Virus record (IMG/VR): IMGVR_UViG_2531839524_000004
DNA length: 64,000 bases
Origin: a virus
Lineage: Duplodnaviria; Heunggongvirae; Uroviricota; Caudoviricetes
Reading direction: 5' to 3' (one strand)
The notes beneath the pieces are model-generated. The model saw only the letters and a list, made by a program, of their open reading frames with translations, was not told where the DNA came from and made no database searches. Shown in pieces: positions 2,411 through 40,595 of this stretch. The translations under genes were made by a program, and so were the position numbers. Positions within the stretch are counted from its first letter, which is position 1. Every line of letters starts with the position of its first letter.

Positions 2411-2746
2411 ATGGAAAGACAAACGTTTAATTGGTATCCAGATTACGAATCTGAAAAAAGCGTAAAACCGAATGTAACGGTACTTAATTTTGGTGATGAC
2501 TACGAGCAGCGACAGGCTCAAGGTCTTAATCGTATTAAAGAAGAATGGTCGTTAACCTTTACCAGATCATACAACGAAATTAATGCAATCGATGACTTCC
2601 TGACTGAGCGATCAGGCGTTGAATCGTTCTATTGGGTTAATCCAAGAGGCAAGCAGATTGTAGTTGTATGTGACAGTCATACGGTCAAGCGATATCAGGG
2701 GTACTGTGTCTTAACTGCTACATTCAGACAAGTATTTGAGGCTTAA
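2411..2746 (+). CDS. Minor tail protein (lambda gpM-like)
   Basis: 111-aa ORF in the canonical position between tape measure and gpL-like gene; call is by synteny and size. Confidence 0.55.
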   Translation: MERQTFNWYPDYESEKSVKPNVTVLNFGDDYEQRQAQGLNRIKEEWSLTFTRSYNEINAIDDFLTERSGVESFYWVNPRGKQIVVVCDSHTVKRYQGYCVLTATFRQVFEA

Positions 2747-2795
2747 GTATCTGGATAAGTAAGTACTAATTTACTATCATTGTGGCGCTGACAGG

Positions 2796-4317: not shown

Positions 4318-4898
4318 TTCATGTGCAGCTTGGCGGACCTATGGCTAAACATTTTGGTCGCCACTGGCATCTAAAGGTGCGCAATACAAAACAGGCTCTG
4401 GATTTAATTGAAGCCAACAAGCCTGGGTTTAAAGCATGGATGAAGCGCAATATCAAAACCTATGACAGTTACCACATCCAGATCACCAATAAACAGGGCC
4501 ACAAGTGGTCTGTTGACGAAAGTGAATATCAGATGATGGGGCAGTCTGACAACATTGCCAAAATCCGCATTACACCTGTTCCGCGAGGAAGCGGTGGATC
4601 TGCTTTTGGGTGGTTTCAGACGGTAGTAGGGGCCGCTTTGTTGGTTGTATCGGCGGTAGTGATGCCTGCTTTAGCACCTCTCGGTTTGTCACTGATGATG
4701 GGCGGCATATCACAAATCATATCGCCGCAAGCCACTAACGAAAGTGTGAGACAGGCAGATAACTCGAACTCTTATTATTTCGACGGCCCTCAAAATACAG
4801 AAAACCAGGGCAACCCAGTACAACTTATCTATGGCGAGGAAATTCTGGTTGGCTCACAGGTTGTGAGTTCTTCAATCACGATTGACCAGCTAATGTAA
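4305..4898 (+). CDS. Tail assembly protein (lambda gpI-like)
   Basis: 197 aa with a hydrophobic C-terminal segment, between gpK-like and gpJ-like genes; GTG start overlapping the upstream gene. Confidence 0.55.
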   Translation: MSELVHVQLGGPMAKHFGRHWHLKVRNTKQALDLIEANKPGFKAWMKRNIKTYDSYHIQITNKQGHKWSVDESEYQMMGQSDNIAKIRITPVPRGSGGSAFGWFQTVVGAALLVVSAVVMPALAPLGLSLMMGGISQIISPQATNESVRQADNSNSYYFDGPQNTENQGNPVQLIYGEEILVGSQVVSSSITIDQLM

Positions 4899-4909
4899 AC
4901 AAGGATTTT

Positions 4910-9643: not shown

Positions 9644-9736
9644 TGGTGGAAAAAAAATTTTATATCGGTAAGAATAGGTAAGTACTTACTTAATGGCGGG
9701 CAAGGATAGCCCGCCAAATCAAGGAGCATATTCAAC

Positions 9737-19702: not shown

Positions 19703-21043
19703 ATGACCGAACTTTGCCATACAGGACGCGGGCTGTCCGAAGAGTTTGATGAAGATTTCCAGAACAGACTGACGGCATATTTTTGTCGTGATCACGAGTT
19801 TCTTACTCGTGCGGGAGATCTGGTTGTGCCTAGCCAATTTGCCAATGCGGCCAATGCCATATTGGTTAATATGGTTTCGGGCTATTACCGTATGTACAAG
19901 AGCGCGCCCTCTTCATCTGCAATTCTGGATATGCTTAAGCGTGCGAAACGCGATAAGACTATCCGTGAGGAACTATTCGCCGATGTTGTTGCTGCGTTTA
20001 AGCGCATTCTTGCAGAAAAATTGTCCGATACCTCGTACATGGTTGACCAGGTATCAACCTTCGCAAAAAGTGTAGCGTTTGATGATGCTCTGATTAAGGC
20101 TGCTGAACTGAAAGAGAAAGGCGACTTTCACGGGGCGATGGCAATCATGGCCAAGGTTCAGCAGATTGGATCGAACGAAGCGACCGGAATCTATGACTAC
20201 TACACCTCCGCAAGTGAGCGATTGAAAGCGCGTGAATATGAGGCTTCAGAGGAGTATGTACCAAACAGTATTACAACTGGACTCCCTCTTCTCGATAGGT
20301 TGCTGTACCAAAAAGGCTGGGCAAAGCGCGAAATGGTGCTCTTCATGGGGTTCGCTAAATCCGGTAAATCGACCGCAATGGGTGAGTTTTCCATAAACGC
20401 AACACTTGCTGGCTACAATGTTCTGTATCTCTCGCTGGAGGTTCACACCACCATTTTATCCGACCGTTTTGATGCAAGATTGTCGGAGACGGAAATGTCC
20501 AAGTTGGTGGAACGGCGCGATGAAGTTCATCGCAAGTTGGCAGAGTTGGGAGCTACGAAGGGTATTGGTAGTTTGTGGGTTGTTGAGCGTCCGTCAGGAA
20601 GTATGTCACCGGCAGATCTGGACCGTATGCTTAACAGCATGAAAGCCAACGGCATGGTGCCTGACATGGTTGTTGTCGACTACGCAGATTTGATGCGTGC
20701 CAGTTATGACCTTCGTGATGATCGCGCCAACATTCGTAGTATCTACACCGATTTACGTGCTCTTTATGACAAGCATAACGTTGCTGGGATCACGGCATCG
20801 CAGACAAACCGTGAAGGTGGCGCGTCAGAAGTTGCCACAATGATGCACGCTGCCGACAACATCGAAAAAGTACGTATTGCTGACCTGGTAATAACGATCA
20901 ACAAAACCGAAGAAGAAGAAGCGAAAGGAGAGGCTCGTCTCTACTTTGCTGGTTCACGTAACCAGCAGGGAGGGATCAGCATTCGCGTTAAACAAAACCT
21001 CGAACAAATGCGCTTCATTGAGCGAATCTTAGACGTTACCTAA
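19703..21043 (+). CDS. DnaB-like replicative helicase
   Basis: Walker A 'GFAKSGKST', Walker B-like 'VVVDYADLM', and 'SQTNREG' motif. Confidence 0.8.
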   Translation: MTELCHTGRGLSEEFDEDFQNRLTAYFCRDHEFLTRAGDLVVPSQFANAANAILVNMVSGYYRMYKSAPSSSAILDMLKRAKRDKTIREELFADVVAAFKRILAEKLSDTSYMVDQVSTFAKSVAFDDALIKAAELKEKGDFHGAMAIMAKVQQIGSNEATGIYDYYTSASERLKAREYEASEEYVPNSITTGLPLLDRLLYQKGWAKREMVLFMGFAKSGKSTAMGEFSINATLAGYNVLYLSLEVHTTILSDRFDARLSETEMSKLVERRDEVHRKLAELGATKGIGSLWVVERPSGSMSPADLDRMLNSMKANGMVPDMVVVDYADLMRASYDLRDDRANIRSIYTDLRALYDKHNVAGITASQTNREGGASEVATMMHAADNIEKVRIADLVITINKTEEEEAKGEARLYFAGSRNQQGGISIRVKQNLEQMRFIERILDVT

Positions 21044-21052
21044 AAAATAAGC

Positions 21053-22306
21053 GTGGAGAACACCTCCACGCTTGATTCATTGGTGAAACAACTTTTCTTT
21101 TGCCAAACCACAAAAGAAAAACACATGAGCCTTTATGTTATATCAACATTTAGGTTGGTCACAATATTGCCTGTTAAAAGTGGAATTATCGTGAGCGAGC
21201 TGAAAGAGCTAATTACCGAATTAGATTTTGAACAATGGTTGGATACTGAAGGTATCGTTTATCGACGTGGAGGCGTGAGTACTCGCGGTCGTGAAGTGAA
21301 TATCAAGGAGTGTCCGGTATGTGGCAGCTCCAACTGGAAGGTATATTTCAATCTGACCAGTGGCGTCGGTAAATGCTTCGCTGGTGATCATCCCGAAGAG
21401 ATTCAGTTCAATAAGCTGGTCTTCCTCAAGCACTACAGCGGCAAATCACGACGACAGTTCGAGGAATATGTGCAGAACGCCCTTCTTTCCCAGGGGTGGG
21501 CACCAAAGAAAGAAGAGCTAGTGCTTGCAAGCACAGTCGAGTTAGAGGGGCCAGTTGCACTCCCTCGTCATTACGAGCTTCCTATAGATGGTCGTCTTCC
21601 AGACTATCTGGTTGAACGAAACATATCGCCTGAAATGGCAAAGTATTTTGACCTACGATACTGCGTCGAAGGCAAGCACGCCTATGTAGATCCGTATACA
21701 GATCAGGTTAAAGGACAGATATTCGATATGCGAATACTGATACCGGTTTACGATCTGGATGGGGTAATGAAGACATTTCAGGGACGAGACATTACCGGTA
21801 CAGCAGAACGTCGCTACCTCTTTCCTATGCAGCTTCCAGCTTCAGGTAAGTTTCTCTACAACGGCCATAATGCAGTCGGCAAACAGACGGTAGTTGTCTG
21901 TGAGGGGGCGTTCGATGTTATGGGGGTCAAACGAGCTATTTTTGACGAAGAAACATTACGTGATTACGTGGAACCAATAGGAACGTTCGGGATGCATCTA
22001 TCTGGCAACACCACTCAGGATGCAGAAGATCAGCTGGGCGCGTTCCTGACGCTCAAGGCGCGTGGATTACGTAATGTGATCATGATGTGGGATAGTGAAA
22101 AGCAAGCTATACGCAACACTATGGCCGCAGCTAGGCGACTCACAAGTATTGGCCTTAATGTCAAAGTTGCGTGTTTGGGCGAGGAAGGACTCGACCCCGG
22201 CGATGCGACACCGGGGCAGATTATCAAAGCCTACTATTGCGCAAAACCTTATTCACGACAGCTTGAACTCTTAAGCAAGGTGAAAGGCATTGCAGCACTA
22301 GTTTGA
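21053..22306 (+). CDS. DNA primase (zinc-binding plus TOPRIM)
   Basis: 'CPVCGSSNWKVYFNLTSGVGKCFAGDH' zinc-ribbon-like element and 'VVVCEGAFDVMG' TOPRIM acidic motif; true start may be downstream of 21053. Confidence 0.7.
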   Translation: MENTSTLDSLVKQLFFCQTTKEKHMSLYVISTFRLVTILPVKSGIIVSELKELITELDFEQWLDTEGIVYRRGGVSTRGREVNIKECPVCGSSNWKVYFNLTSGVGKCFAGDHPEEIQFNKLVFLKHYSGKSRRQFEEYVQNALLSQGWAPKKEELVLASTVELEGPVALPRHYELPIDGRLPDYLVERNISPEMAKYFDLRYCVEGKHAYVDPYTDQVKGQIFDMRILIPVYDLDGVMKTFQGRDITGTAERRYLFPMQLPASGKFLYNGHNAVGKQTVVVCEGAFDVMGVKRAIFDEETLRDYVEPIGTFGMHLSGNTTQDAEDQLGAFLTLKARGLRNVIMMWDSEKQAIRNTMAAARRLTSIGLNVKVACLGEEGLDPGDATPGQIIKAYYCAKPYSRQLELLSKVKGIAALV

Positions 22307-24366: not shown

Positions 24367-24837
24367 GTGAAAGCTGATTTGTCAAAAATCCCTTCTATTT
24401 CAGGAAATAACGGTTATTCACTTCGTTGTGAGGAAGTAAAGATAAACGGTGAGTCGGCATATTGCAGCTATTCCGTTTGCCAGCACACCATTCTTGCCTT
24501 CAAAGAAAACCGTCTTCCTCGAACTTCTTTCCAGTCGTGCGCAACCGCTATCAAAGCAGGCAAATGCAAGGCGTTAAAAATGATGGTTGAAGAGATTCGT
24601 AAAGGAGAATCTCTGTATTTCGAAGATATGACCGCGCTCATTAAGGAGGTTGAAGAACGGAATAAACAAGCCAGAACTATAAAACGAAAACGTGACAGTG
24701 TAACGATTAATAGCATGGTTAAGAAGAGCACCACATCACAAACAGCGATCACTGACGTGTATGCGGCGTTGCTTGAAGAAACAACAAAAGAAACACATGA
24801 GCAAATCGATCAACATATGGAGGCAAAACAACAATGA
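24367..24837 (+). CDS. Hypothetical protein
   Basis: 156-aa ORF with several Cys near the N-terminus; stop overlaps the ligase start. Confidence 0.45.
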   Translation: MKADLSKIPSISGNNGYSLRCEEVKINGESAYCSYSVCQHTILAFKENRLPRTSFQSCATAIKAGKCKALKMMVEEIRKGESLYFEDMTALIKEVEERNKQARTIKRKRDSVTINSMVKKSTTSQTAITDVYAALLEETTKETHEQIDQHMEAKQQ

Positions 24838-26156
24838 AAAAGTTGATCGCACTTAAGCATAAGCTGGACGAAATGAAAGCTATGGGAACCAATGCAAAAA
24901 AAGAGGCATTGGCCAACATGGATGACTTCGAGCAAAGCATGGTTTCATTGATGCTCAACCCTTTCATCCGTTTTGGGGTAAAGAAATACAAAGTGGCAGA
25001 GCCGCTTAGTGAGTCCGTCCCAAGTGACGAAAAAGCCATTGATATACTGAATAAGCTGGCCTCTCGCGAGCTGACGGGGAACGCAGCAATAGCTGCTGTT
25101 GAGTCTATCGTGGCGTCAATGTGCGCCGATGGGCAGGACGTGTTCCGTCGTTTCCTCTTAAAAGATCCGAAAGCTGGCGTTGGGATTAGCCTATGTAACA
25201 AGGTTTTTGAAAATCCCATTCCGAAATTCGAGGTGCAGCTGGCGTCACCGTATAAAGAAAAAGGCGACAAATACCCCTTCAAGCCAAATCCTAAAGCCAA
25301 ATGGCCGATGATTGGCAGTCTTAAGCTCGATGGTTTGCGAGTAATTTGCGAGGTTATTGTTGACGAGGAAGAGGTTAACTTCCTTTCTCGTACTGGTAAT
25401 CCAATCACGTCTCTCGATCACCTAAAGCCAGCCATGCTCGAATTAGGCAAACTTTCAGGCCACAAACACATCTTCTTCGATGGTGAAGGAACTGCCGGTT
25501 CATTTAACCAGTCCGTATCTGCATTGCGCAAAAAGAACGTGCAGGCAATTGGCGCTATTTATCATGTTTTCGACTTCTTCCTACCGGAATGGCGAGCACA
25601 GGCTAAATCCAAAGAGTATGCAAAGACAGGTATGAAGCTGAAAGAGCGCCTGGCTATGCTGGTGGCGTTGTTCAAAAACGATCGCAGTGAAGGCTACACA
25701 CAAGACATTCACCTGCATCCGTTCTATATCATCCATAGCCACGAAGACTTCATCGAACGCTTCATGAAACGCCTGGACGATAACGAAGAAGGGGAGATGG
25801 GCAAAGATCCGAACTCTGTTTACGAGTTTAAACGTACCCGCAGCTGGTGGAAGTTAAAAGACGAAGATTCAGAAGATGGTGAAATTATCGACTTTGAGCC
25901 GGGCGACCCGGACTCTGGTTTTGCCAACACACTTGGAAAAATTGTTATTCGTCTTGAAAACGGCGTCATCGTTCGTGCGAGCGGTATTAAGCATAAATAT
26001 CTGGACGAGATCTGGAACAACAAAGAGAAGTACCGTGGTCGTATTGTTGAGGTTCATTGTCACGAGAAAACACCGGATGGCAGCTTACGCCACCCCCGAC
26101 TGAAATGGCCGCGTTGCTTACGCGATACAGAAGATCGAATCGGAGATAAAGAATGA
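24834..26156 (+). CDS. ATP-dependent DNA ligase
   Basis: Adenylation motif KxDG in 'MIGSLKLDGLRV'; 440 aa. Confidence 0.7.
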   Translation: MKKLIALKHKLDEMKAMGTNAKKEALANMDDFEQSMVSLMLNPFIRFGVKKYKVAEPLSESVPSDEKAIDILNKLASRELTGNAAIAAVESIVASMCADGQDVFRRFLLKDPKAGVGISLCNKVFENPIPKFEVQLASPYKEKGDKYPFKPNPKAKWPMIGSLKLDGLRVICEVIVDEEEVNFLSRTGNPITSLDHLKPAMLELGKLSGHKHIFFDGEGTAGSFNQSVSALRKKNVQAIGAIYHVFDFFLPEWRAQAKSKEYAKTGMKLKERLAMLVALFKNDRSEGYTQDIHLHPFYIIHSHEDFIERFMKRLDDNEEGEMGKDPNSVYEFKRTRSWWKLKDEDSEDGEIIDFEPGDPDSGFANTLGKIVIRLENGVIVRASGIKHKYLDEIWNNKEKYRGRIVEVHCHEKTPDGSLRHPRLKWPRCLRDTEDRIGDKE

Positions 26157-28488: not shown

Positions 28489-29751
28489 TTACTTTGCATA
28501 GTCGCCCAATTTTAATATTTCGCGCTTATATTCATTAACCATGCTACTGGATTCAGTATAAATTCGATTTAAAAGATTATCGTTATCTTTATTTTCATTT
28601 ATCTTAATTAGTGCTAATTTATATTCATAGTCATCAAATGCCACAATTAAATGGTGGCCTGGGATTATATCTTCGTCACTCTTAAAGTATATATCTTCAA
28701 GTATGTAATCTAGTTGATTAGATTTTCTTTTCTCGATGTAATCTTCAGCCATAGCTATTACATCATTCCTGTCATTTAACCTGTTTTTTTCGGAAGGCAC
28801 ATCTTCGTAATGTTGCACGATTGAACAACCAATAAGGCGTGGGATGTAAACGTCAAAATGAGTAACTCTATCATTCGCGGTTTTAAGTAGTTCCTCAAAG
28901 TAGTTTCTTACATGTAAAGGCAACTTCTCAAAGTAATCATTAATTATAGGAGAACAAGGAGTTTTATAATTCATAAGAACCGACGGTACGAGCTTTGGGT
29001 GTCGAAACATCCAGTCCCTTTTAACGTCCGATGGAACATAATAACTTTTAATGATATTATCAAAATAATTTATCATTCGAGATTTGAATATTTTGTTGAA
29101 TCTAAGGTTTATGAATGTATCCAGATAAGGCATATTTGAATAAGCATCATCAAAAAATATTTCATCATTGAAAAAATCATATTTATTCAATAAACAACAC
29201 AGTTTTTCCGAATTAATATGTTCACAATAATCGATTTTTAATCCAAAGATAGCAATGATCAACTTCATCTGAGGTGGGATTTTAAAAATTAATTGTGACA
29301 CATACGCTCTTTTTTCCTTGAGACATTCCCCATCAATATAAAATGAACCATCCACATACTCAAATATATTAATAATATGCTTCACATACTGTATTACCTC
29401 ATGCTGTCTTACCAATGGATAATATAGTCTATGTAACTCATCGCTGTTTAAATTAATTTTGTGTTTATCGATAATTTGTTTTGCAAGAAGACATAACTCA
29501 TCATGTTGATTTAATAAGGAATCAAACCATTGTTTAAATGCACTCTTTCGCATTTCGAACAATGATTCAGTTGTTAATTGAAGGGCTGAAAAAGCTGCTT
29601 TTGCACTTTTTCTCGCTTCGTAGGCATTCCATGCTGTTGCTATAAAAGCAAATGCTGTAGCCAATGTTCCAACAGTTTGACCATTTAAAACAACCCAATC
29701 CCAAAAAATGACGGTGAGCAGTAGTATAATAATGAAAATTAAAAAAGGCAT
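28489..29751 (-). CDS. Membrane-anchored hypothetical protein encoded in an AT-rich island
   Basis: 420 aa; two N-terminal TM segments then a large soluble domain with no motif I recognise; locus is visibly much more AT-rich than surrounding phage genes. Confidence 0.6.
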   Translation of the reverse strand: MPFLIFIIILLLTVIFWDWVVLNGQTVGTLATAFAFIATAWNAYEARKSAKAAFSALQLTTESLFEMRKSAFKQWFDSLLNQHDELCLLAKQIIDKHKINLNSDELHRLYYPLVRQHEVIQYVKHIINIFEYVDGSFYIDGECLKEKRAYVSQLIFKIPPQMKLIIAIFGLKIDYCEHINSEKLCCLLNKYDFFNDEIFFDDAYSNMPYLDTFINLRFNKIFKSRMINYFDNIIKSYYVPSDVKRDWMFRHPKLVPSVLMNYKTPCSPIINDYFEKLPLHVRNYFEELLKTANDRVTHFDVYIPRLIGCSIVQHYEDVPSEKNRLNDRNDVIAMAEDYIEKRKSNQLDYILEDIYFKSDEDIIPGHHLIVAFDDYEYKLALIKINENKDNDNLLNRIYTESSSMVNEYKREILKLGDYAK

Positions 29752-29925
29752 GTATGTATTTCACTCTACTAACTATAAAATATTAGGCTAATGTTAACCA
29801 AACAATGCCTTAATTAATAGATTGATCGAGGCTTTAATAGCTTTATAATGCAGACTGTAAAGATAAGTATGCACATACCTATCTTCTTTGTAAGTAAAGT
29901 TGCATATCAATTCTATGAGGTAACA

Positions 29926-30171
29926 ATGACGATCACTATCTACGGACGAGATAACTGCTCATACTGCAAACGTGCGGTCGAGCTGGCGAAGCAACTAAAG
30001 GGACATGGCTACGGTGATTATGAGTACATCGACATCACCACTGCCGGTATCGACAAGGAAAAACTAAGTGAAATTGTTGGTAAACCGGTAGAGACTATCC
30101 CCCAAGTGCTGATCGATGGCCAACCGATTGGCGGATACACAGAACTGGCTGCATACGTCAGCACCCTCTGA
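29926..30171 (+). CDS. Glutaredoxin / NrdH-like redoxin
   Basis: 'MTITIYGRDNCSYCKRAVELA' carries the CxxC active-site motif at the expected position; about 80 aa from the internal ATG of the 29848 ORF. Confidence 0.7.
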   Translation: MTITIYGRDNCSYCKRAVELAKQLKGHGYGDYEYIDITTAGIDKEKLSEIVGKPVETIPQVLIDGQPIGGYTELAAYVSTL

Positions 30172-30381: not shown

Positions 30382-31485
30382 ATGAAAAATAGCTTTGACA
30401 GAGCACGCGCTGCGGAGAACACCTCAAAAGAGGCGATTGAGTATCTCGAAAGAGCATCTCAAATGCAGGCCGTTATGATCTCGCAGGTTAGCAATGATAT
30501 GAGATTCTCGGACGCATTCATGTTATTTACTCGCTTATCTCTGCTGATAACAAGACGTCGGCCGGAGATCGCTGTTCATTGTATTTTGATACATGTTTTG
30601 CCGCACATTGCTGATGTAAAAGTAAGTGACATTAATAGGTTCATGGTGAACCAACTGGTCAACCCCCTAATACTGGATGGCAAAATTGTTATGGGCCGCC
30701 GCGTTTTCTCTCTGATGAAGCAGTTCCTTAGCTGGTGTGCCTTCCAGGGGATGATCGACGTGTCACCGTTAAACGATATGTCACTAAACAAAGTTGCCGG
30801 TGGCGCAAAGCCCACGCCTCGCGAGCGGAAGCTAACCGACGCAGAGGTATGGGTGTTCTGGAATATATGGGACTACTTCAATGTGTGCGCTGGTACAAAA
30901 TGGGCGGCCAGGCTATGTCTTGTATCCGCAAGACGACCTGACGAAGTACTGCGGGCTAAAAAAAGTGAGTTCAACCTCCAGCGTGGGGTTTGGAATCAAG
31001 GCAAGAGAAACAAATCAGCCCGTGAGCATTCTCTGCCTTTAAGCACATTAATGCGCACATGCATTGAAGAGTTATTCGAATATGGTAAAGGCAGCCAGTG
31101 GCTTGTGCCTTCGAATAAAAAAATCGGGAAAGATCTTCCGATGTCTAAAGTGGCAATAGCCCAGGCATTACGCCGTATCCTGGAACGACCAGAACTGATG
31201 GAGCTTGAGCCATTTACACCACGAGATTTGCGTCGTACTGCGCGTAGTTACTTCCCAGCATTAGGCATAAGCCAGGAGGTATCACGTAAAATCATGAACC
31301 ACAGTCTTGAGGGGATAGATCGGGTCTACGACCGGCACGATTATATGGACGAGATGCGAGACGCCTTAGAAAGTTTCTCGACGTACATCGCATCAATCGT
31401 AGAGCAACCGGATTTAGACGAAATTGACCACAAATTCAAGGGAGATCGTCTATCGACAGAGCTTATTCGTGTAAATTTTTCATAG
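30382..31485 (+). CDS. Tyrosine recombinase / integrase-family protein
   Basis: C-terminal 'TPRDLRRTARSYF...IMNHSLEGIDRVYDRHDY' resembles the HxxR...H...Y catalytic region of tyrosine recombinases, with Arg where the first His is usual; 'SARRPDEVL' is a box I-like Arg. Confidence 0.65.
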   Translation: MKNSFDRARAAENTSKEAIEYLERASQMQAVMISQVSNDMRFSDAFMLFTRLSLLITRRRPEIAVHCILIHVLPHIADVKVSDINRFMVNQLVNPLILDGKIVMGRRVFSLMKQFLSWCAFQGMIDVSPLNDMSLNKVAGGAKPTPRERKLTDAEVWVFWNIWDYFNVCAGTKWAARLCLVSARRPDEVLRAKKSEFNLQRGVWNQGKRNKSAREHSLPLSTLMRTCIEELFEYGKGSQWLVPSNKKIGKDLPMSKVAIAQALRRILERPELMELEPFTPRDLRRTARSYFPALGISQEVSRKIMNHSLEGIDRVYDRHDYMDEMRDALESFSTYIASIVEQPDLDEIDHKFKGDRLSTELIRVNFS

Positions 31486-31866
31486 AGACTTTATGGCCTC
31501 AACAACCTTTTGTGATGCGCCTTTCTCTTTACCGAATCGCTCGTTATATGCAGCAAGAACCTGTTTTTCGTCCTCGTTAAGAGGAGCAGTGCCTTCTTTG
31601 TATAAAAATGCTGCGAGTTCGGGTTGGCGTTCTTCCAGCACCATCATCATAAGACGACTTGGCTCAATACCCAGTGCCAGCGCCAGCGGACGAACCTTAT
31701 CGATAGGCAAAGGAATTTTGCCGCTTTTAATTAAAGAAAGGTTGTTGGCGTTTTTATACCCAATTGTTTTGGCTATCTGGGCCTGGCTCATAGGTGAGGA
31801 TTCAATCAACCCTGCGATAAAAGCAGCGTAGCGACTTTCTATAAATTCAATCTTGTTGTCAGACAT
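31480..31866 (-). CDS. XRE-family helix-turn-helix transcriptional regulator
   Basis: 'SQAQIAKTIGYKNANNLSLIKSGK' HTH-like segment; 128 aa; convergent with the recombinase and divergent from the vWA/AAA+ operon across a 560-bp AT-rich region. Confidence 0.6.
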   Translation of the reverse strand: MSDNKIEFIESRYAAFIAGLIESSPMSQAQIAKTIGYKNANNLSLIKSGKIPLPIDKVRPLALALGIEPSRLMMMVLEERQPELAAFLYKEGTAPLNEDEKQVLAAYNERFGKEKGASQKVVEAIKSL

Positions 31867-32118: not shown

Positions 32119-32331
32119 ATGAACACCACTATTTCCAGCCTAATAGCTCTTGAGATCGGACACGTACAAAAATTAGCTGATGAGTGTGTAGCTGACATCC
32201 TCACCGAGCTACCGAATGAGCAGATTGAGGTTGGTGTGAATGACACAACTGGCTTTATATTCGAACTTAACAACAAACGCTTCACGCTTATCAATACCGG
32301 CTCCGGGTCTTTAGCCGTCAGAACCTGTTAA
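32119..32331 (+). CDS. Hypothetical small protein
   Basis: 70-aa ORF in the AT-rich intergenic region; coding status uncertain. Confidence 0.3.
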   Translation: MNTTISSLIALEIGHVQKLADECVADILTELPNEQIEVGVNDTTGFIFELNNKRFTLINTGSGSLAVRTC

Positions 32332-32429: not shown

Positions 32430-34538
32430 ATGTCTAAAAAACGTTCCATCAAAGAGGTTCAGGACTTCCGTGACAGTGTAAAACGAGTAGTCGCTCTCCT
32501 TTCAGGTAAAAACATCCCTGTTGCAGAACGAGGGGACGACGCTTATGTACGCTATAACGATGATGGAGAGCCAATTCTCGTAAACATCCCATCAATCCCG
32601 GATAACGCAACACCGGCATTGATGAATGCTGTGCGCGGATTTCTCGATCATGAGGTTGCTCACATTTTGTTTACCGATATTCGTGTGTCCAACAAAATGA
32701 GAGAAAAAGGACGCGTTCCTTCCTGGTCGCTATGGAATGCCTTAGAAGACGTGTTCATCGAGCGAAAAATGGGTCAGGTCTTTAACGGAACAAGACGTAA
32801 TCTGATGGCAACTCAGCGCCTTATAATCGAAAAAGTCTTTAAACCAAAGGCTTCAGAGGCTATTGCTTATTGTGGCAAAGATCAGCGCGCGCTTTTTCTA
32901 AACTTCTTTCTCTGTCCGGTTGTAAGAGCCTGGGATGGCCAAGCACCGTTCGTAGATTTCATGGATGAATATTGGCCTGTCATTGAGAAACCAATTTCAT
33001 TATTAAAAGAACATGGTATCGATGTGGCCGTGCGTAACATGTCTTGCACCGAGGATTGTGTAAAGGTGGCTGCGACCATAGCTAAGATCCTCAAAGACAC
33101 TGAAAGTGAAAGCAAAGGTAAGGAGTCAGCTCCGGGAAAAACTTCCGATCCTTCAGACGCTGACCAGACGGATGCCTCTGGAGAAAACAATGAAGACAAC
33201 GAAGATCATGAGACACTCTCAGTGTTAGATAATCACAAATCTATCAAATCAGAATCACATAGTAAGTACAAACATGATAATAACGACAGTGATGATTCAG
33301 ATAATTCTGAATCATCAGAAACAATATTCGATGATACAGAAAATGATAAAGAGGTATCAGATTCTGATGCTTCTGATAACGCGGCGTCAGAATCATTAAC
33401 CGCTGACCACGAAAAAAGAAAAACGACAGAAGACGGCTCTTCAGATATCCCAACTCCGTCAAAAATGAGTCTGGAAGAGGCTTTAGAGGAGCTGGATAGC
33501 ATAGAAGATGAAGTCGGAGGCATGACAGAAGATGCTCTATCCGAAACGATTAAAAGCGAGTTAACAGAAAGCTCGAAAAGCGAATACAGGCCATACAATC
33601 GCTCATACGACTTCATCGGCTCGATTGATCAGGCAGAAGCCCATATCAAACGGCTTATTAAAACATTCTCCGATATTGATTTAGGTGGATATCCAATCAG
33701 CCGTTATCGCATCGTTCCTGAAGGCAACCAACTCTTCGACAAATATATTGAAAAGCACCTTTCGTCAGGTGTTTCGTCGACGCTGGCAAAAGACCTGGAA
33801 CGTGCAATAGCAAGCAGAAACAGAGTTCAGTTTATACCTGGCCAGCGTCGGGGGCGCATTCATGGTTCAAGTATCTACAGATTAACAATGAATGATGATC
33901 GCGTGTTTCGTAAAAAAGAAGAATCTAAAGCCGTTAACGCCTGTGTTCAACAAGTGATTGATTTATCAGGTTCAATGAGTGGTATAACGATACAATTGGC
34001 TCTTGCAAGTGCATATACCATCGCCGATGCCCTTGATCGAATAAATGTTCCCAACATTATCACCGGCTTCACTACATTTGGTAGTCATATGGCGGCAGGA
34101 GAACTTAAGGCTGTCAAGTATGAGTTCTCTCGCTTTGAATCTTTAATGCTACCTATCATCAAAAATTGGAATGAAAAGGTAAATTCTCGCGAAGTTCGCT
34201 CACGTATGGGGTGCGTAGGCTACACATTCCCACTTCTTAATAACGTGGATGGTGAAAGCATAGCCAGCCTTGCATCGTTATTTTCCGGTCGCATGGAGGA
34301 CAGGAAGATCATGCTTGTTCTGAGTGATGGCGCGCCGTGGGCTGTTGGGAGAGGTTTTGACGCTCATTTGCGTTCAGTTGCGAAGCAAATTGAAACGCAG
34401 ACTGATATTGATTTGATGGCAATTGGCATCATGACTGACGCACCGGAGAGATTTTACGCAAATCATGCCCTGGTAACGAGCGTTGATAGTCTTGGTGCAT
34501 CTGTAGTTACTGAACTATCTCGTATCATTTTGAAGTGA
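32430..34538 (+). CDS. vWA-domain protein (CobT-like) with N-terminal HExxH motif and acidic linker
   Basis: 'FLDHEVAHILF' (HExxH) at residues 74-78; long acidic Ser/Asp/Glu-rich central region; C-terminal 'VIDLSGSMSG' MIDAS-type vWA motif. Confidence 0.7.
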   Translation: MSKKRSIKEVQDFRDSVKRVVALLSGKNIPVAERGDDAYVRYNDDGEPILVNIPSIPDNATPALMNAVRGFLDHEVAHILFTDIRVSNKMREKGRVPSWSLWNALEDVFIERKMGQVFNGTRRNLMATQRLIIEKVFKPKASEAIAYCGKDQRALFLNFFLCPVVRAWDGQAPFVDFMDEYWPVIEKPISLLKEHGIDVAVRNMSCTEDCVKVAATIAKILKDTESESKGKESAPGKTSDPSDADQTDASGENNEDNEDHETLSVLDNHKSIKSESHSKYKHDNNDSDDSDNSESSETIFDDTENDKEVSDSDASDNAASESLTADHEKRKTTEDGSSDIPTPSKMSLEEALEELDSIEDEVGGMTEDALSETIKSELTESSKSEYRPYNRSYDFIGSIDQAEAHIKRLIKTFSDIDLGGYPISRYRIVPEGNQLFDKYIEKHLSSGVSSTLAKDLERAIASRNRVQFIPGQRRGRIHGSSIYRLTMNDDRVFRKKEESKAVNACVQQVIDLSGSMSGITIQLALASAYTIADALDRINVPNIITGFTTFGSHMAAGELKAVKYEFSRFESLMLPIIKNWNEKVNSREVRSRMGCVGYTFPLLNNVDGESIASLASLFSGRMEDRKIMLVLSDGAPWAVGRGFDAHLRSVAKQIETQTDIDLMAIGIMTDAPERFYANHALVTSVDSLGASVVTELSRIILK

Positions 34539-34633
34539 TTAAAACAGCCTTAATGATAAGTAACTACTTATCATAGTTAATGGTATATTTATATAAGAAA
34601 TTAAACGCTCATTAGAGAACAAAGGAAAAGCGC

Positions 34634-35869
34634 ATGACTACGACTGCACTGCAAAATGATAAAAATCCTTCTGATTACCTTGTTTGCAAGTGGTGCGGCA
34701 AATCATTTCATTATTTTAAGTCCCATGTAGCCAATGGTAATTGCGAGGGCATTCCTGAGTCAGTAAAAGATGCCGATCCTGACACTGTACTGAAAATGTA
34801 CACAACGCAGTTTCCAGACGAGCCGACGCTATCAAAAAAGGCACTTGATGCAATTCAAGCCAAACGTGCCGAGCAAAAAAGCGAAATAGCCAAATCTTCT
34901 GGCGTAACCAGTAACCCAGGCTACACAGGCACAGTTGAGTACAAGACAGATCTGGTCGCAGCTCACGAACTGCTAGGTGTAACGGTGAAAGAACTCGGGA
35001 CAAAACGTGGGGCGCCGCTCATGGTTAGCGTCAACGTCAATACGCCGTTTCCAGAGTTCGTTCCAGAAGTGAAGCAGGGCTACGTATATGGCGACTTTGA
35101 ACTGATCAAAGACATTTTCATGATGCTTGAACTTGGCATACCAGGCTATTTGTGGGGTCATGCGGGAACAGGCAAATCATCATTACCTACACAGCTATGT
35201 GCTTTGCTCAATCGTCCGTTAATCCGTGCCCAACATACAGCATCAATGGAAGAGGCTCATGTTACTGGTCAAATTCTGGCGCGTGATGGCTCTACGTATT
35301 TCGAACCTGGCTTACTTGCGCTTGCCATGAAGCATGGCTGGGTTTACCTCGCGGATGAATACGACTTTGCGTTTCCACAAATTCTTGGCGTGTACCAGCC
35401 AGTGCTGGAAGGTGAGGCGTTGGTTATCAAAGAGGCGACTCCAGAATGGCGTCGCATTACTCCGCATGAACGATTTGCTTTCATTGGTACTGGCAACACA
35501 AACGGTTCTGGTGATGAAACCGGCTTGTACCAGGGTACAAATATCCAGAACGCCGCAAACTTTTCGCGTTTTGGCATCGTTTCGAACGTGAAATACATGA
35601 GCAAAGAGGCAGAGATCAACATGTTGATAAATGCCGGCATCGTGGATGAATACGCTGAGAAGATGGTTAAGTTTGCCGGTATCGTTCGCGATGGATACGA
35701 AGAACACAATATCAGCCAACCAATTGGGCCTCGTGAGCTTTTGTTGTCGGCCAAGATTGGAATGATGCGAGGCGACTTTGTGACAGGCATTGAGCGTTCT
35801 TTCATTAACAAACTCCCTTCAGCTTCTGCGCAAGCGGCTCGTGAAATTGTTCAGAAAATATTTGGTTAA
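34634..35869 (+). CDS. AAA+ ATPase (MoxR / CobS-like)
   Basis: Walker A 'GHAGTGKSS' and Walker B 'VYLADEYDFAFPQ'; immediately downstream of the vWA protein gene. Confidence 0.75.
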   Translation: MTTTALQNDKNPSDYLVCKWCGKSFHYFKSHVANGNCEGIPESVKDADPDTVLKMYTTQFPDEPTLSKKALDAIQAKRAEQKSEIAKSSGVTSNPGYTGTVEYKTDLVAAHELLGVTVKELGTKRGAPLMVSVNVNTPFPEFVPEVKQGYVYGDFELIKDIFMMLELGIPGYLWGHAGTGKSSLPTQLCALLNRPLIRAQHTASMEEAHVTGQILARDGSTYFEPGLLALAMKHGWVYLADEYDFAFPQILGVYQPVLEGEALVIKEATPEWRRITPHERFAFIGTGNTNGSGDETGLYQGTNIQNAANFSRFGIVSNVKYMSKEAEINMLINAGIVDEYAEKMVKFAGIVRDGYEEHNISQPIGPRELLLSAKIGMMRGDFVTGIERSFINKLPSASAQAAREIVQKIFG

Positions 35870-35871
35870 TC

Positions 35872-36075
35872 GTGCGTAAAGGATGTTTCGGCTCTCTTAT
35901 CGCTGCTTCTGAAACTGGTAAGGCTTGTCTGGTATGTCCAGACAAGCCCGATTGTCACCAATCAGCAAAAGAAGTTGCGATTTCGATGTATGGGAAGTTC
36001 GTAGGCTTCCCCAATGACAAAATCAAAAAAACCAGAAAGGTAAAAACACATGAAGGCTCTAATGGTTCGAACTGA
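35872..36075 (+). CDS. Small Cys-rich protein (putative zinc ribbon)
   Basis: 'CFGS...CLVCPDKPDC'; 67 aa; overlaps the polymerase start. Confidence 0.35.
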   Translation: MRKGCFGSLIAASETGKACLVCPDKPDCHQSAKEVAISMYGKFVGFPNDKIKKTRKVKTHEGSNGSN

Positions 36076-39000
36076 CTTCTCTCTTGGGGAGTCGGCTCTA
36101 AAAGCAGAAAACGCGGGGAAGATTGCCAGAGAAGCTGGCTACACCGCTGTAATTTCGGCAGATAGCATGAATATTGCGAGTGTTATTCCACTACAACGTG
36201 CCGCTGGTGACGACATGGCGGTTATTTGTGGTGTGAAACTAAACATCGTTGATGATCCCACATACGAGCACCGGGCTAAACTTGCTAAAGAGTCTATGAG
36301 ATGTATGGAATCATTAGAGCGTGGGCGGAACTACTCGTTTACCGCTCTAATTAAAAATGAGCAAGGATATCGCGACATCTGCGAACTAATGACGGTGGCC
36401 AACACACGAGAACAATTCTACTTTGTACCGCGTCTCTCGCTCGATCAGCTGGTTTCTACATATGCCAAAGGCAACATCATCCTGCTTACTTCCGACATCG
36501 GTAGCGTGTTCCAACGCAACGATTTTGCAAAAATCATAAGCTCACTGATTACAGCGGGTGGAAAAGACAACTTCTATAGCGTGGTTTATCCGCACCCTAC
36601 CCCATTCTACGACCAGATTAACGTCCGAGCGATGAAAGTAGCTAGCGCACTGAAAATAGAGCCAGTGGCGTTCTATCCCGCTTATTACGAATCGATCGAC
36701 GATGCAGACATTAAAGACATTGCGCACATGGTTACGAACAACATCAAAATAGCCCAGCCGCATCGTCTGCGTATCCCCCACCAGCGAGATAACGCCGTCA
36801 ATGGTCGCCGCCATCTCCTTGAGGCGCTTAAAGCCTTCTCCGTTCGCATGGATGTGCCGGTAACAGCTGCAATGGCCTCAACAACGCAGGACACCATTAT
36901 CGAAGCCTGCACATGGCGCTGGCATGAATTGCCACCAGCACTTCCTAAGATGGCAGACGACGAACCTGCAACACTGATGAAACTTGCTGTTGCAGGGCTG
37001 CGTAAGCGTCTTACCACAAAAGAGTTTGGCTATATACCACCGGCTTCTGAGAACAGGGTTTATGTTGAACGACTTAAGTACGAAATGGACACGCTGACTC
37101 GCCTGGGATTCTGTGGTTACTTCCTGATGGTGCGCGATCTGATGAATCATAGTCGTGAAACTGGCATTCCCGTTGGGCCTGGTCGTGGTTCCTCTGCCGG
37201 TTCTCTGGTGGCGTGGTGCATAGGCATAACCAACGTCGACCCAATCCGTCACGGTCTTCTGTTTGAACGTTTCATCAACCCTGAGCGTCTCGACTTGCCG
37301 GATGCGGATTTGGACTTCAGCCAGGCACGTCGCCATGAGGTGATCGAGTATCTGAATGAACGCTACGGCGAAGATTACGTTGCAGGCATTCCGAACTTCA
37401 CCTACCTGGGCGCCGCCTCTGCACTACGTGACACTGCTCGTATTTATGGTGTGGAGTCCGCAGATATGGCGGTATCAAAAGAGCTGAAGAACGTCGAGGA
37501 TGATAGCCTTCCATTGGAGGAGCTGCGCGAACAACTGGCAAGTCTCGACAAATACGCGACAAAATACCCTGATGCATTCAATGCAGCCTGCAAGTTACAA
37601 AGCCTTATGCGTGGCTTTGGTAGGCATGCGGCTGGGATGATCGTAGCAGGTGTTCCTCTGACTGAACGTACACCGGTTGAACGTCGTGGTGACGCGCGTT
37701 GTATCGCATTTGACAAGCGTTACTGCGAGGCTATGGGCCTAATTAAGCTGGACGTACTTGGCCTAGCAACTCTCGATTTGCTCGATAGTGCAAAACGCTA
37801 TATCAAAGAGAACACGGGTGAAGATATCAACCTTGATGCCATTTCTCTTGAAGATCGCAAGGTGCTGGATGGTTTTGCTGCTGGGTACACTCAAGGTGTT
37901 TTCCAGCTTGAATCAGGCCCAATGCGCAAGCTGCTTAAGGACTTAGGTAGTGGCATTGAGCCAATGAGCTTTAAAACGGTCGTTGCTACGACTGCGCTCT
38001 TCCGACCGGGGCCAATTCAGTCAGGCATGTTGGATGACTATGTTTCTGTCGCCAAAGGTTTTATGACGCCAGAGTCACTACACCCCGTTCTTGATGAGCT
38101 TACCGCAGAAACCAACGGTGTGATTCTCTATCAGGAGCAGACGATGAACGCGACCCGATTGCTTGCCGGCTTCACAATGGCTGAAGCTGACGGCGTTCGT
38201 AAAGCGATCGGCAAAAAAGATATGGAAAAAATGAAGAGCATGGGCGAGAAGTTCATCGTTCAGGCTCAAGCTGGCTGGATAGACGTTGAGCTGGAAGATG
38301 GCACTACACAGCGCATTCACCGTGCGGAACATTTTAAATGCGAAGACGGAACTCTGAAAACTGTCGAAGAGGCACTTGAGCACGGCGCAAAACTACCTAT
38401 AAACGCAGTACGCGTGACAGCGTCACACCCAGGGCTATCAGAGATGAAAGCGAAGGAGATCTGGACCGCATTCGAAAAAAATGGTGCCTACCAGTTCAAC
38501 AAATCACACTCTGTTGCTTACTCCTTAATCAGTTATCAATCTATGTGGTTGAAAACTCATTATCCCGCAGAGTTTTTCGCTGCTGCTCTTACTATTCTTG
38601 GTGAAGATAAACACCAGGGGCTGGTTAAAGATGCGCTGACCTATGGCATTCGCGTATTGCCACCAGACGTTAATGTGTCATCTAACCGAATAGAGATCCG
38701 CACGCTTGAAGATGGCAGCCAGGTGCTGTTCGCGCCTTTCTCTGCTGTGAAGGGGTGTTCAGAGAATGGCTGCCAAGCCATCATGAGAGCGCGTGAAAAA
38801 GTTGGAGGTAAATTCGAGTCACTGGCGCAATTCGAAGAAGCTGTCGAGAAACGTGCCTGTAATAGTCGAGTACGCGAATCACTGCAAAAAGTAGGGGCGT
38901 TTGCATCCATTGAGCCTGGTAGTCTGCCAGCAACTGATCCAGAGCGTCTCCGCGACCAAGCAGAATTGATGGGAAACCTTGTCATAGACGCAGTTAAAGC

Positions 39001-39568
39001 CTCACGTCCGTTTGAAATGAACCCCAAACGATCGGCTGAAATTAACGTGCTCATGACACGGATGGCGGCTGAAATGGGTTTAGGTGATGAACTAATCCGC
39101 CCCAGCATTGGTATTAAGCCGAAAATCATGATCATTCTGGACAATGCGAACGGCAATGATGCTCGAACCGGTTACTTTATGGAGAACGGATACGACGATT
39201 TTAAGGCCAAGTTGCTGACGGCCGGAGATTTGCGTATGGGCGATCTCTATGTCACAGGCGTTTGCAAGAAGGTTAAAGACAAAGAAAAAGACTACACCAA
39301 AGACGAGATCGGCCAGTTCACCGACTTTATGCGTGAAGAGATCAATCTGGTGCGTCCGACCTATGTTCTGACGTGTGGTAGTCGGGCGACGTCGCTCTTC
39401 AACAACAAGAGCAAACCATCCGACCTGGTTGGACGCAAAGAGTATCTGCCAGAGCTGGATGTGACCGTTTTCTACGGCTTTAACCCGAATATTTTGTACT
39501 TTCGTCCAGAGGAAGGCGAGAAGCTGGAAGCAATTCTGGCAGAGGTAGCGGAGACTATTAGCAAATGA
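36050..39568 (+). CDS. dnaE: DNA polymerase III alpha-like replicative polymerase (DnaE family)
   Basis: 'GPGRGSSAGSLVAWCIGITNVDP...FERFINPER...DLPDADLDF' and 'FNKSHSVAYSLISYQSMWLKTHYPAEF' are hallmark DnaE motifs; N-terminal PHP-like region lacks the usual His residues. Confidence 0.85.
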   Translation: MKALMVRTDFSLGESALKAENAGKIAREAGYTAVISADSMNIASVIPLQRAAGDDMAVICGVKLNIVDDPTYEHRAKLAKESMRCMESLERGRNYSFTALIKNEQGYRDICELMTVANTREQFYFVPRLSLDQLVSTYAKGNIILLTSDIGSVFQRNDFAKIISSLITAGGKDNFYSVVYPHPTPFYDQINVRAMKVASALKIEPVAFYPAYYESIDDADIKDIAHMVTNNIKIAQPHRLRIPHQRDNAVNGRRHLLEALKAFSVRMDVPVTAAMASTTQDTIIEACTWRWHELPPALPKMADDEPATLMKLAVAGLRKRLTTKEFGYIPPASENRVYVERLKYEMDTLTRLGFCGYFLMVRDLMNHSRETGIPVGPGRGSSAGSLVAWCIGITNVDPIRHGLLFERFINPERLDLPDADLDFSQARRHEVIEYLNERYGEDYVAGIPNFTYLGAASALRDTARIYGVESADMAVSKELKNVEDDSLPLEELREQLASLDKYATKYPDAFNAACKLQSLMRGFGRHAAGMIVAGVPLTERTPVERRGDARCIAFDKRYCEAMGLIKLDVLGLATLDLLDSAKRYIKENTGEDINLDAISLEDRKVLDGFAAGYTQGVFQLESGPMRKLLKDLGSGIEPMSFKTVVATTALFRPGPIQSGMLDDYVSVAKGFMTPESLHPVLDELTAETNGVILYQEQTMNATRLLAGFTMAEADGVRKAIGKKDMEKMKSMGEKFIVQAQAGWIDVELEDGTTQRIHRAEHFKCEDGTLKTVEEALEHGAKLPINAVRVTASHPGLSEMKAKEIWTAFEKNGAYQFNKSHSVAYSLISYQSMWLKTHYPAEFFAAALTILGEDKHQGLVKDALTYGIRVLPPDVNVSSNRIEIRTLEDGSQVLFAPFSAVKGCSENGCQAIMRAREKVGGKFESLAQFEEAVEKRACNSRVRESLQKVGAFASIEPGSLPATDPERLRDQAELMGNLVIDAVKASRPFEMNPKRSAEINVLMTRMAAEMGLGDELIRPSIGIKPKIMIILDNANGNDARTGYFMENGYDDFKAKLLTAGDLRMGDLYVTGVCKKVKDKEKDYTKDEIGQFTDFMREEINLVRPTYVLTCGSRATSLFNNKSKPSDLVGRKEYLPELDVTVFYGFNPNILYFRPEEGEKLEAILAEVAETISK

Positions 39569-39746: not shown

Positions 39747-40595
39747 TCAATATTTAACAAATATTTCATTAAGCCTAGGGTTAACTTGGTCATATTTATC
39801 TATGTCGTCTTTTAAAACTGAATGACATTTGACACCAATTTCAAATGCTATCAATATCGAATTTATATATTGATTATAGCATTCAATCAAAGATTTAATA
39901 TCAGATGATAGTTGTATCAACCGTGGATTGACTCTAAGAGCACTAATAACCTTATCATACTTGTTAAGCAACCCATTCAATTCATTAGCAAAATTATATG
40001 GATAACCATTTTGGTATGTATTTTCATCATCAGCAGGACCTAAATAATCACCAATGCACTTAAGTTTATTCTTAATGAATACAGCATCTTCAGTGGCATC
40101 TATATCATTTTTCGTTAAGAAAAGTTCTATCCACTTGTTCTTGTCCGACTCTTTCAAAAGGTTATTTTCTTTATCAAAAGTAATACAATAGCTATCACTT
40201 TTTTTCTCGTTGGAAATACTAATCATTTCCGCCAACTCGTCTTTACCTAAATGTTTCCAAAATATTACAGGGAGACCGTTGTCGTTTAGAAAAACGCGAA
40301 CAATGACAATCGGATCATTAATACTTTGCCAATAAATTAAATTTTTAATAGGTACAGAAACTCTTAGTGAATCATCGATTTTTTTACTTGTTGTTTTAAC
40401 TTGAACTCCAATAAACATACCTGTTGAATGACAGTTGTCATCATAAATCTCAACCTGAGCATCCAACCCCATGTCAATATCAAGAATTCGGCAAGGCCAT
40501 ACAAATTTATTTGAAATCCAATATGCGAAATAAAACTCACCAGCATTTCCGTTAGCAACTCTTTCGATATATCTCATGCCCTGATCGTTTGCCAC
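39747..40595 (-). CDS. Hypothetical protein with possible PD-(D/E)xK nuclease-like N-terminal domain, in an AT-rich island
   Basis: 282 aa; N-terminal 'GNAGEFYFAYWIS...ILDIDMGLDAQVEIYDD...FIGVQVKTT' gives a G-x-D...Q-x-K pattern reminiscent of restriction-endonuclease-like folds (inference); strongly AT-rich. Confidence 0.5.
   Translation of the reverse strand: MANDQGMRYIERVANGNAGEFYFAYWISNKFVWPCRILDIDMGLDAQVEIYDDNCHSTGMFIGVQVKTTSKKIDDSLRVSVPIKNLIYWQSINDPIVIVRVFLNDNGLPVIFWKHLGKDELAEMISISNEKKSDSYCITFDKENNLLKESDKNKWIELFLTKNDIDATEDAVFIKNKLKCIGDYLGPADDENTYQNGYPYNFANELNGLLNKYDKVISALRVNPRLIQLSSDIKSLIECYNQYINSILIAFEIGVKCHSVLKDDIDKYDQVNPRLNEIFVKY

Follow-up and report, generated by a model that had tools for sequence, protein, structure and literature searches.

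A CobS/CobT-like pair with an intact zincin-like signature in the replication gene block of an SSU5-like phage-plasmid

Adjacent genes whose products resemble the cobaltochelatase subunits CobT and CobS, followed by a gene for a small cysteine-rich protein, are present in a 64,000-nucleotide (nt) stretch of viral DNA (IMG/VR record IMGVR_UViG_2531839524_000004), to which we refer as the window. The window is an SSU5-like phage-plasmid, of which it represents 64 kb out of ~108 kb, the remainder lying outside. Between positions 32000 and 36100 its DNA is 96-97% identical to that of the Escherichia phage-plasmids Cyrano, CMS-2020a and PhiR41_1, and the cobS-dnaE part is ~80% identical to the DNA of Salmonella phage SSU5. 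A first-pass annotation of this sequence had singled out three open reading frames (ORFs) between 32430 and 36075, described as a vWA protein with an HExxH motif, a MoxR/CobS-like AAA+ ATPase and a zinc-ribbon protein. All three are present, with the following features (aa, amino acids):

32430..34538 (+): CobT-like adaptor, 702 aa; Pfam CobT and CobT_C; phrog_1576, 6.9e-300
32430..33134 (+): zincin-like N-domain of the adaptor (aa 1-235); HExxH at nt 32649-32663, Glu-helix NALEDVFIE at nt 32736-32762
33132..33464 (+): acidic, Ser/Thr-rich linker of the adaptor, predicted to be disordered (aa 235-345)
33813..34535 (+): shaft-equivalent segment (aa 462-503) and vWA domain of the adaptor; MIDAS (for metal ion-dependent adhesion site) DLSGSMSG at nt 33960-33983
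34634..35869 (+): CobS-like MoxR-class AAA+ ATPase, 411 aa; Pfam AAA_5, 2.1e-15; phrog_249, 3e-106
34634..35053 (+): N-terminal extension of the CobS-like protein (aa 1-140); C18-x2-C21-x4-H26-x4-H31 at nt 34685-34726
35872..36075 (+): 67-aa Cys4 protein; CFGS-x10-C-x2-C-x5-C at nt 35884-35955; phrog_6337, 2.8e-46

Both parts of the 702-aa protein were recognized by Pfam above the gathering scores (PF06213 CobT, aa 9-294, 2.3e-25; PF11775 CobT_C, i.e. the vWA domain, aa 492-701, 1.6e-82), and the elements that the first reading had pointed out lie where they had been described. HEVAH corresponds to aa 74-78, the MIDAS to aa 511-518, and the long acidic linker holds 33 D/E and 30 S/T in its 111 residues, its predicted disorder being reflected in AlphaFold pLDDT (predicted local distance difference test) values below 50 at aa 252-329. 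Mean pLDDT was 84.9 for the full-length model and 90.7 for the N-domain; the latter is modelled with one helix and a sheet of three strands, followed by helix 62-81 with HExxH, helix 96-117 with the Glu, and additional helices. The N-domain, the acidic disordered linker and the vWA domain with a DxSxS MIDAS, preceded by a shaft, make up the architecture of a CobT-type adaptor. In its C-terminal half the protein is matched by the solved CobT chain 9uka_G (1e-16), and aa 440-697 align with residues 347-616 of Brucella CobT, a region spanning the shaft (Q373-R413) and the MIDAS residues D422/S424/S426. Foldseek searches with the full-length model gave matches to the vWA domain only, with NorD and the MIDAS domain of midasin as the best folds; the N-domain model returned no significant peptidase match, nor anything significant at all, and in Pfam searches of the N-domain up to E 10 no peptidase match was found below E ~0.1. 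The viral family phrog_459, named 'peptidase', matches aa 72-128 (5e-8). A match of aa 95-144 to AcrIIA26 (PDB 9zq6_B, E 1e-3) was treated as probably due to chance, because it is confined to one segment (NxxEDxFIE...G) and AcrIIA26 is reported to mimic DNA and to have a novel fold.

The 411-aa protein is an ATPase of the MoxR-class AAA_5 family (PF07728, 57.4 bits with a cut-off of 22), in which the expected Walker A (GHAGTGKSS, aa 174-182, nt 35153-35179) and Walker B (LADEYD, aa 239-244, nt 35348-35365) motifs were located. Sequence matches in the PDB rank CobS first (2.8e-26), followed by midasin, CbbQ and NorQ, so that Pfam and PDB matches alike support the CobS/CobT-like MoxR-vWA pairing suggested by the first-pass annotation. 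The alignment with solved CobS begins at aa 142 of the phage protein and residue 39 of the chain, leaving ~100 extra N-terminal residues that include a Cys2His2-like motif. In this extension a pattern C-x2-[C/D]-x4-H-x4-H, followed by Y..[FY]P..P.LS, is conserved over 31 DnaE-linked loci. Pfam searches up to E 10 gave no family match for it, zinc-finger and Ros/MucR families included, and a resemblance to MucR-type fingers, which had been considered, is thus unsupported.

On the basis of these alignments, the pair is a homolog of the CobST motor-adaptor complex. The order of parts in the AAA_5 ATPase and its adaptor is the same as in CobS/CobT of Brucella (PDB 9ujv, 9uka and related entries), where the disordered linker of CobT has ~90 residues. 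In a preprint on that complex (bioRxiv 10.64898/2026.07.21.739949), the crystal of Brucella CobT_N has the same secondary-structure order as the viral N-domain and is termed M48C-peptidase-like, the Q373-R413 shaft of CobT enters the CobS pore, CobT_N docks on the CobS lid, with a salt bridge of D80 there, and CobN occupies the space between the MIDAS face and CobT_N, making no contact with CobS. As for orthology, the CobT-like protein scored 66.7 bits with the NCBIfam CobT equivalog TIGR01651 (cut-off 759), only its C-terminal half being matched, while Brucella CobT, included as a positive control, reached 1092.7 bits; the CobS-like protein scored 87.2 bits with TIGR01650 (cut-off 558.55). 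Since both scores are ~tenfold under the cut-offs, the pair consists of chelatase homologs and not of equivalogs. The chelatase also has CobN, and no such partner of the viral pair was found: ORFs above 1000 aa in the 64-kb window encode tail proteins and DnaE, and no CobN lies by any of 31 genomic loci with an HExxH-type CobT. Large ORFs near genomic homologs encode a NACHT-TPR NTPase and an M1 aminopeptidase, and not CobN.

Zinc-site residues in viral and cellular CobT

A word-indexed search with the N-domain gave almost only fragments of close relatives, and an exhaustive phmmer search of representative sequences was used instead, with aa 1-235 as query, which retrieved 1148 proteins at E <=1e-3. 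Among the best 150 hits (33-73% identity) there were 127 full-length proteins; 126 of them carry HExxH within the N-terminal 160 residues, and the DxSxS motif is present in all 127. When 81 sequences were aligned (mean column identity 27%), the invariant positions were G35, P54, G70, D73, H74, E75, H78, E106, D107, E111, G120 and R166, along with G475, D511, S513 and S515 in the vWA region. HEVAH is therefore no chance match. Lack of conservation of HExxH in homologs had been named beforehand as an outcome that would speak against the first reading of the locus, and the motif proved instead to be near-universal in viral and mobile-element homologs.

The invariant H74, E75, H78 and E106, located in two helices (62-81 and 96-117) that follow a sheet of three strands, correspond to a gluzincin/M48-like motif. 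The HExxH helix, the Glu of the next helix and the small preceding sheet are shared with M48/M56 zincins (Ste24/ZMPSTE24, HtpX, Oma1, BlaR1), from which the viral domain differs in being soluble and fused to a vWA domain. HExxH, NxxEDxxxE and MIDAS were also found together in the 'peptidase' of cyanophage Syn33, in CobT of roseophage CRP-810 and in a CobT-like protein encoded on a genomic island of Salmonella, and variant forms of this signature are present in Vibrio phage JSF27 and in pelagiphage HTVC008M, the latter with a variant second motif.

The situation is different in cobaltochelatases. With solved Brucella CobT as query, none of 118 full-length proteins (those with source names being cobaltochelatase CobT) carries HExxH, and in a profile-profile alignment done with hhalign the GLGD-SMALR segment of true CobT stands opposite the viral GFLD-HEVAH, so that H74, E75 and H78 are replaced by S, M and R. 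Other positions of the site are retained in true CobT: viral D73 corresponds to Brucella D80, the residue of the salt bridge with the CobS lid, and the two Glu of the next helix (VEQARVE) are kept in both.

The combination of a metallopeptidase motif with a vWA domain, in a gene adjacent to one for an AAA_5 ATPase, has precedents. Phage MoxR-vWA pairs with an N-terminal metallopeptidase were reported by Iyer et al. (2021; PMC7824862) and a viral cobST cluster by Liu et al. (2021; PMC8651126), and the window genes are of this type. The peptidase-vWA plus MoxR architecture of phages was therefore already published in 2021, and the GenBank records of SSU5 and Cyrano already include annotations for these genes. 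With respect to other viral cobST clusters, including the 'peptidase'-CobS clusters of T4-like cyanophages such as Syn33, which have the same architecture, the lineage of the window is distinguished by the order CobT, CobS, then Cys4 and DnaE, and by the finger-like N-terminal extension of CobS. Added here are the explicit comparison of catalytic residues between viral and cellular proteins, the equivalog tests that the pair failed, the strict block of four genes with a single DnaE subfamily, the placing of the small Cys4 protein in a family and the recurrence of a replication-module context. An AAA_5 motor with a vWA-MIDAS partner is also found in NorQ/NorD, CbbQ/CbbO, midasin and p618/p892 of Acidianus two-tailed virus (ATV), whose partners, according to their descriptions, have no zincin-like N-domain; that of ATV is explicitly described as devoid of a peptidase (Iyer et al., 2021, PMC7824862).

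Gene neighbourhood and linkage to dnaE

The genes surrounding the pair in the window that are of relevance for its interpretation are:

36050..39568 (+): DnaE-type DNA polymerase III alpha; Pfam PHP, DNA_pol3_alpha, finger and HHH_6; last gene of the conserved block
32119..32331 (+): 70-aa ORF (orf70); phrog_2627, 7.7e-41; CYRAN_46 in Cyrano
31480..31866 (-): helix-turn-helix (HTH) repressor-like gene; phrog_8 transcriptional regulator; Pfam HTH_19, 7.8e-4, under the curated cut-off
35-13645: tail genes
19703-21043: DnaB-like helicase
21053-22306: primase
24834-26156: ATP-dependent ligase

The ligase gene is followed by those for glutaredoxin, integrase, the HTH repressor, CobT/CobS/Cys4 and the DnaE-type polymerase, and the same DNA-metabolism module encodes a gp32-like single-stranded DNA-binding protein (SSB), a UvsX-like recombinase, an SbcC-like protein and a class I ribonucleotide reductase. 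The pair is thus located between the repressor gene and dnaE, ~18 kb away from the end of the tail genes, and belongs to the lytic replication module. The first-pass annotation had ended the gene unit at 36075; it continues, since the Cys4 ORF, which begins 3 nt past the cobS stop, overlaps dnaE by 26 nt, and the conserved block reads orf70, cobT-like, cobS-like, Cys4, dnaE. The DnaE protein has a C-terminal extension of ~210-250 aa (38930-39565 in the window; phrog_4335, phrog_13175), whose last 212 aa show a weak match to the uracil-DNA glycosylase (UDG) superfamily (1.4e-3, under the cut-off); the annotators of RHEph10 also name this extension UDG-like.

To this locus 73 viral and 31 genomic loci were compared, in which the CobT-like and CobS-like genes are nearly always adjacent. 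A contiguous CobT-CobS-Cys4-DnaE set was seen in 82 retrieved loci, a number that includes some contigs retrieved twice, from proteobacteria and one cyanobacterium. A large group shows the order HTH, CobT, CobS, 0.2-2.3 kb of short genes and DnaE; it comprises phages, or contigs of phage size, from Enterobacterales, Vibrionaceae, Pseudomonas, Stenotrophomonas, Rhizobiales, Rhodobacterales, Burkholderiales, Desulfosarcina and a cyanobacterium, and many of the genomic hits are on contigs of 96-118 kb, which matches the size of these phages. The reciprocal scan was done with 53 viral DnaE loci having at least 4.5 kb of upstream sequence. All 26 loci with CobT and CobS upstream carry the DnaE subfamily of the window (at least 34% identity, and the C-terminal extension where the ORF is intact); in the 27 loci with neither gene upstream the DnaE proteins are all more distant, with identities of at most 31%, and only two of these align to the C-terminus. 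This split could result either from functional coupling or from deep vertical inheritance of one block.

In other lineages the pair occurs without DnaE but again in replication or recombination surroundings: between gp46 and gp45/gp44/gp62 in cyanophage Syn33, next to the clamp and clamp loader genes in pelagiphage HTVC008M, upstream of helicase and Pol I in the Vibrio podophage JSF27, and among ssb, bet and uncharacterised genes in the Salmonella genomic island, where no annotated virion gene was found in the 14 kb examined. At one locus of a Planctomycetaceae metagenome-assembled genome (L108:7664-14892), CobS and an HExxH-type CobT lie beside a convergent gene for a 1467-aa NACHT/AAA_16-TPR (STAND) NTPase, a kind of protein found in conflict systems.

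The small protein between cobS and dnaE has Cys residues at positions 5, 19, 22 and 28. It had been proposed to be a Cys-rich zinc ribbon, and the four Cys are indeed there, but a classical zinc ribbon is not, as the arrangement C-x13-C-x2-C-x5-C includes a single CxxC and no Pfam family was matched. In 42 loci the ORF just upstream of dnaE opens with C[FY]G-x(11-13)-C-x2-C-x5-C; most of these proteins have 175-235 aa, and the long homologs match phrog_3616 at 1e-14 to 1e-63. The 67-aa protein matches the same profile weakly (positions 15-70 of 222, 4e-5). This match and its position between cobS and dnaE identify it as the N-terminal Cys4 module of the conserved family phrog_3616, and its 91% identity to the SSU5 protein, with DNA identity of ~80%, indicates that it is under purifying selection. 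The spacing C-x(11-13)-C-x2-C-x5-C resembles the cluster-binding pattern of WhiB proteins. With regard to a WhiB-like [4Fe-4S] protein, one long homolog gave a Pfam Whib match on CxxCxxxxxC below threshold (14.1 bits, E 0.069; gathering score 23.6), and the 67-aa protein and the other homologs tested gave no Whib score; furthermore, hosts of the Cys4 family are proteobacteria and not actinobacteria, and the C-terminal domain found in the longer homologs (phrog_3616) is unrelated. Of the 82 loci with CobT, CobS and DnaE, 48 also have a gene of ~210 aa with sigma-70 region 2 (e.g. L004:10819-11451, L013:10075-10686), placed, where inspected, between cobS and the Cys4 gene, just upstream of the latter; none was found in the window. 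Such a sigma factor next to Cys spacing of the WhiB type is a hint that the block may have a transcription unit nested within it.

Upstream of the pair, the first-pass annotation had described a divergent regulator across an AT-rich gap of 560 bp. The HTH gene does lie on the opposite strand, 563 bp away, but the gap harbours the 70-aa ORF, kept in most close SSU5-like relatives (46-93% identity), and is only moderately AT-rich (GC 0.39, vs 0.456 for the window). A scan for promoters and terminators gave counts at or under the level of shuffled sequences. The HTH gene is 100% identical to CYRAN_45 of Cyrano, a 'putative repressor', and most related loci have an HTH gene ahead of CobT. In the published list of transcribed Cyrano genes in Escherichia coli LF82 lysogens the CYRAN_45 repressor is present and CYRAN_47/48, the CobT/CobS-like pair, are absent, which fits expression during the lytic cycle. 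In the Cyrano record CYRAN_47 is named 'dimethylbenzimidazole phosphoribosyltransferase' and CYRAN_48 'cobalamin synthetase', names that look like a confusion with the unrelated functions called CobT and CobS in Salmonella nomenclature.

Proposed function and alternatives

Taking together the zinc-site signature, the relation to CobST and the gene context, we consider that the pair may work as an ATP-driven chaperone-protease within a lytic-replication gene block, and not as a cobalt chelatase; our estimate for this reading as a whole is a probability of about 0.5. By homology to CobST, the CobS-like protein is a MoxR-class AAA+ ring motor and the CobT-like protein its adaptor, with the conserved segment preceding the vWA domain corresponding to the shaft that enters the ring pore and the N-domain to the part of CobT docked on the lid of the ATPase. 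A client would be located between the N-domain and the MIDAS face, as CobN is in the chelatase, and the same homology implies that it would be held where the intact zinc-site signature lies. It could be captured via the MIDAS and then remodelled and/or cleaved during lytic growth. The leading candidates by gene linkage belong to the phage replication machinery, namely Cys4 and the DnaE subfamily whose C-terminus is extended.

Several observations weigh against this proposal. HExxH is lost, and MIDAS kept, in nickie-like Pseudomonas phages (loci L003 and L028, from nickie itself and one relative) and in a single representative of metagenomic origin (P0157), where the motif is replaced, for example by GFLDSEISKVLY. 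Nickie still has the CobT-CobS-Cys4-DnaE order, and this loss means that catalysis would be dispensable in some lineages; all these homologs without HExxH would be natural 'catalytic-dead' variants. Since the motif counts given above were obtained on the best-scoring hits, or on loci fetched by means of motif patterns, they are biased to sequences that bear the motif. The synteny with dnaE may only reflect the shared descent of one phage lineage, and many phages have the pair without DnaE, so that any replisome client cannot be DnaE itself in general. Finally, literature searches returned no experimental data on the SSU5-like, cyanophage or integrative and conjugative element homologs.

A more specific version of the chaperone-protease proposal can be conceived, although we regard it as improbable in its entirety: a hitherto uncharacterised two-component AAA+ metalloprotease in which the client would be chosen by the vWA-MIDAS module and the shaft of the adaptor pulled by the ring, dedicated in this phage lineage to maturing or remodelling the DnaE replisome along with the Cys4 protein, and in which the catalytically intact zincin would be the ancestral form and the CobT of chelatases a derived pseudo-protease.

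Among the alternatives, a chaperone for metal insertion devoid of proteolytic activity, similar to NorQ/NorD or CobS/CobT, in which HExxH...E would hold a metal destined for a phage metalloenzyme (the DnaE PHP domain, ribonucleotide reductase or Cys4), is in our opinion unlikely, even if several data would fit it. The nearest solved sequences are CobS/CobT and the fold matches of the vWA domain include NorD, both of them from metal-inserting MoxR-vWA pairs; the neighbouring PHP-DnaE and Cys4 are metal proteins, with the class I ribonucleotide reductase farther along; and the lineages without HExxH retain the MIDAS. However, E75, the zincin catalytic base, is not needed for metal binding alone and is as conserved as the His ligands, and the known metal-inserting homologs, true CobT among them, lack HExxH.

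A comparably low likelihood is assigned to a host-directed protease, i.e. an AAA+/vWA machine that would destroy a factor of host defence or replication control early in infection, as a means of takeover or counter-defence. The broad host distribution of the pair, its presence by replication, recombination or other non-structural genes in all the contexts examined, from unrelated phages to the Salmonella island, and the planctomycete locus with the NACHT-TPR STAND NTPase beside it could be understood in this manner. Against it, PADLOC identified no known defence or anti-defence family beyond a marginal DrmE match, the tight synteny with phage replication genes would be left unexplained, and the very strong conservation over distant hosts points to a conserved client, probably phage-encoded or universal.

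Somewhat less probable still would be a virion-assembly chaperone that processes structural proteins by proteolysis. Iyer et al. (2021, PMC7824862) predicted this role for the same architecture in T4-like jumbo phages, taking as a model the MoxR-vWA pair that ATV requires to develop its tails, and the match of the HExxH region to the cyanophage 'peptidase' family phrog_459 would be in line with it. But the distance of the pair from the tail genes, its location in the module that encodes helicase, primase, ligase, SSB and recombinase, the replication or recombination surroundings of the Syn33, HTVC008M, JSF27 and Salmonella island pairs, and the stretch of that island free of annotated virion genes do not favour it. 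The roles published for viral cobST, B12 synthesis and virion assembly, do not match the context of the window lineage.

The least tenable explanation, in spite of the detectable CobS/CobT homology and the same domain order, is the usual database annotation, which was also put forward as a hypothesis by Liu et al. (2021; PMC8651126), namely true cobaltochelatase subunits that hijack host CobN to raise cobalamin synthesis: the equivalog scores, the lack of CobN in the window and in every related locus inspected, the B12-independent class I type of the phage ribonucleotide reductase and a protease signature missing from every true CobT examined all argue against it, and agree with the first-pass annotation, which had judged a cobaltochelatase role implausible. 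The aerobic pathway is present in some hosts of related phages (Rhizobium, Pseudomonas, Paracoccus), which counts for this explanation. On the other side, E. coli is not known to have CobN or a pathway for corrins, and the route of Salmonella and Klebsiella is that of CbiK; for the E. coli element a chelatase is very unlikely.

The distinction matters because in hundreds of phage genomes, including the core genes of marine T4-like cyanophages, the pair is annotated as cobalamin/porphyrin biosynthesis and counted as an auxiliary metabolic gene. The intact protease signature of the viral proteins, its lack in all true CobT examined and the failure of the window proteins in both equivalog tests argue that the B12 reading is wrong for the phage-plasmid of the window and doubtful more widely, and the recurrent placement among replication genes offers a concrete alternative to it. 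If the chaperone-protease proposal is true, the pair would represent a new kind of ATP-dependent protease or chaperone in phage replication biology, and it would explain the peptidase-like look of the N-domain of chelatase CobT.

Regions 39747-40595 and 28489-29751

Directly after dnaE, on the (-) strand at 39747-40595 (GC ~0.36-0.42), there is an ORF for a 282-aa DUF4365 protein, and Cyrano has HicAB at the same place; this looks like a variable accessory slot. A second slot for accessory genes is probably located at 28489-29751 (-), where a very AT-rich ORF of 420 aa (phrog_18168; unmatched by Pfam families) is found upstream of the genes for glutaredoxin and integrase, with a GC of 0.32 over 29001-30000. 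Roughly in the corresponding region, but downstream of glutaredoxin, Cyrano carries the shorter CYRAN_43, which is very highly expressed in lysogens.

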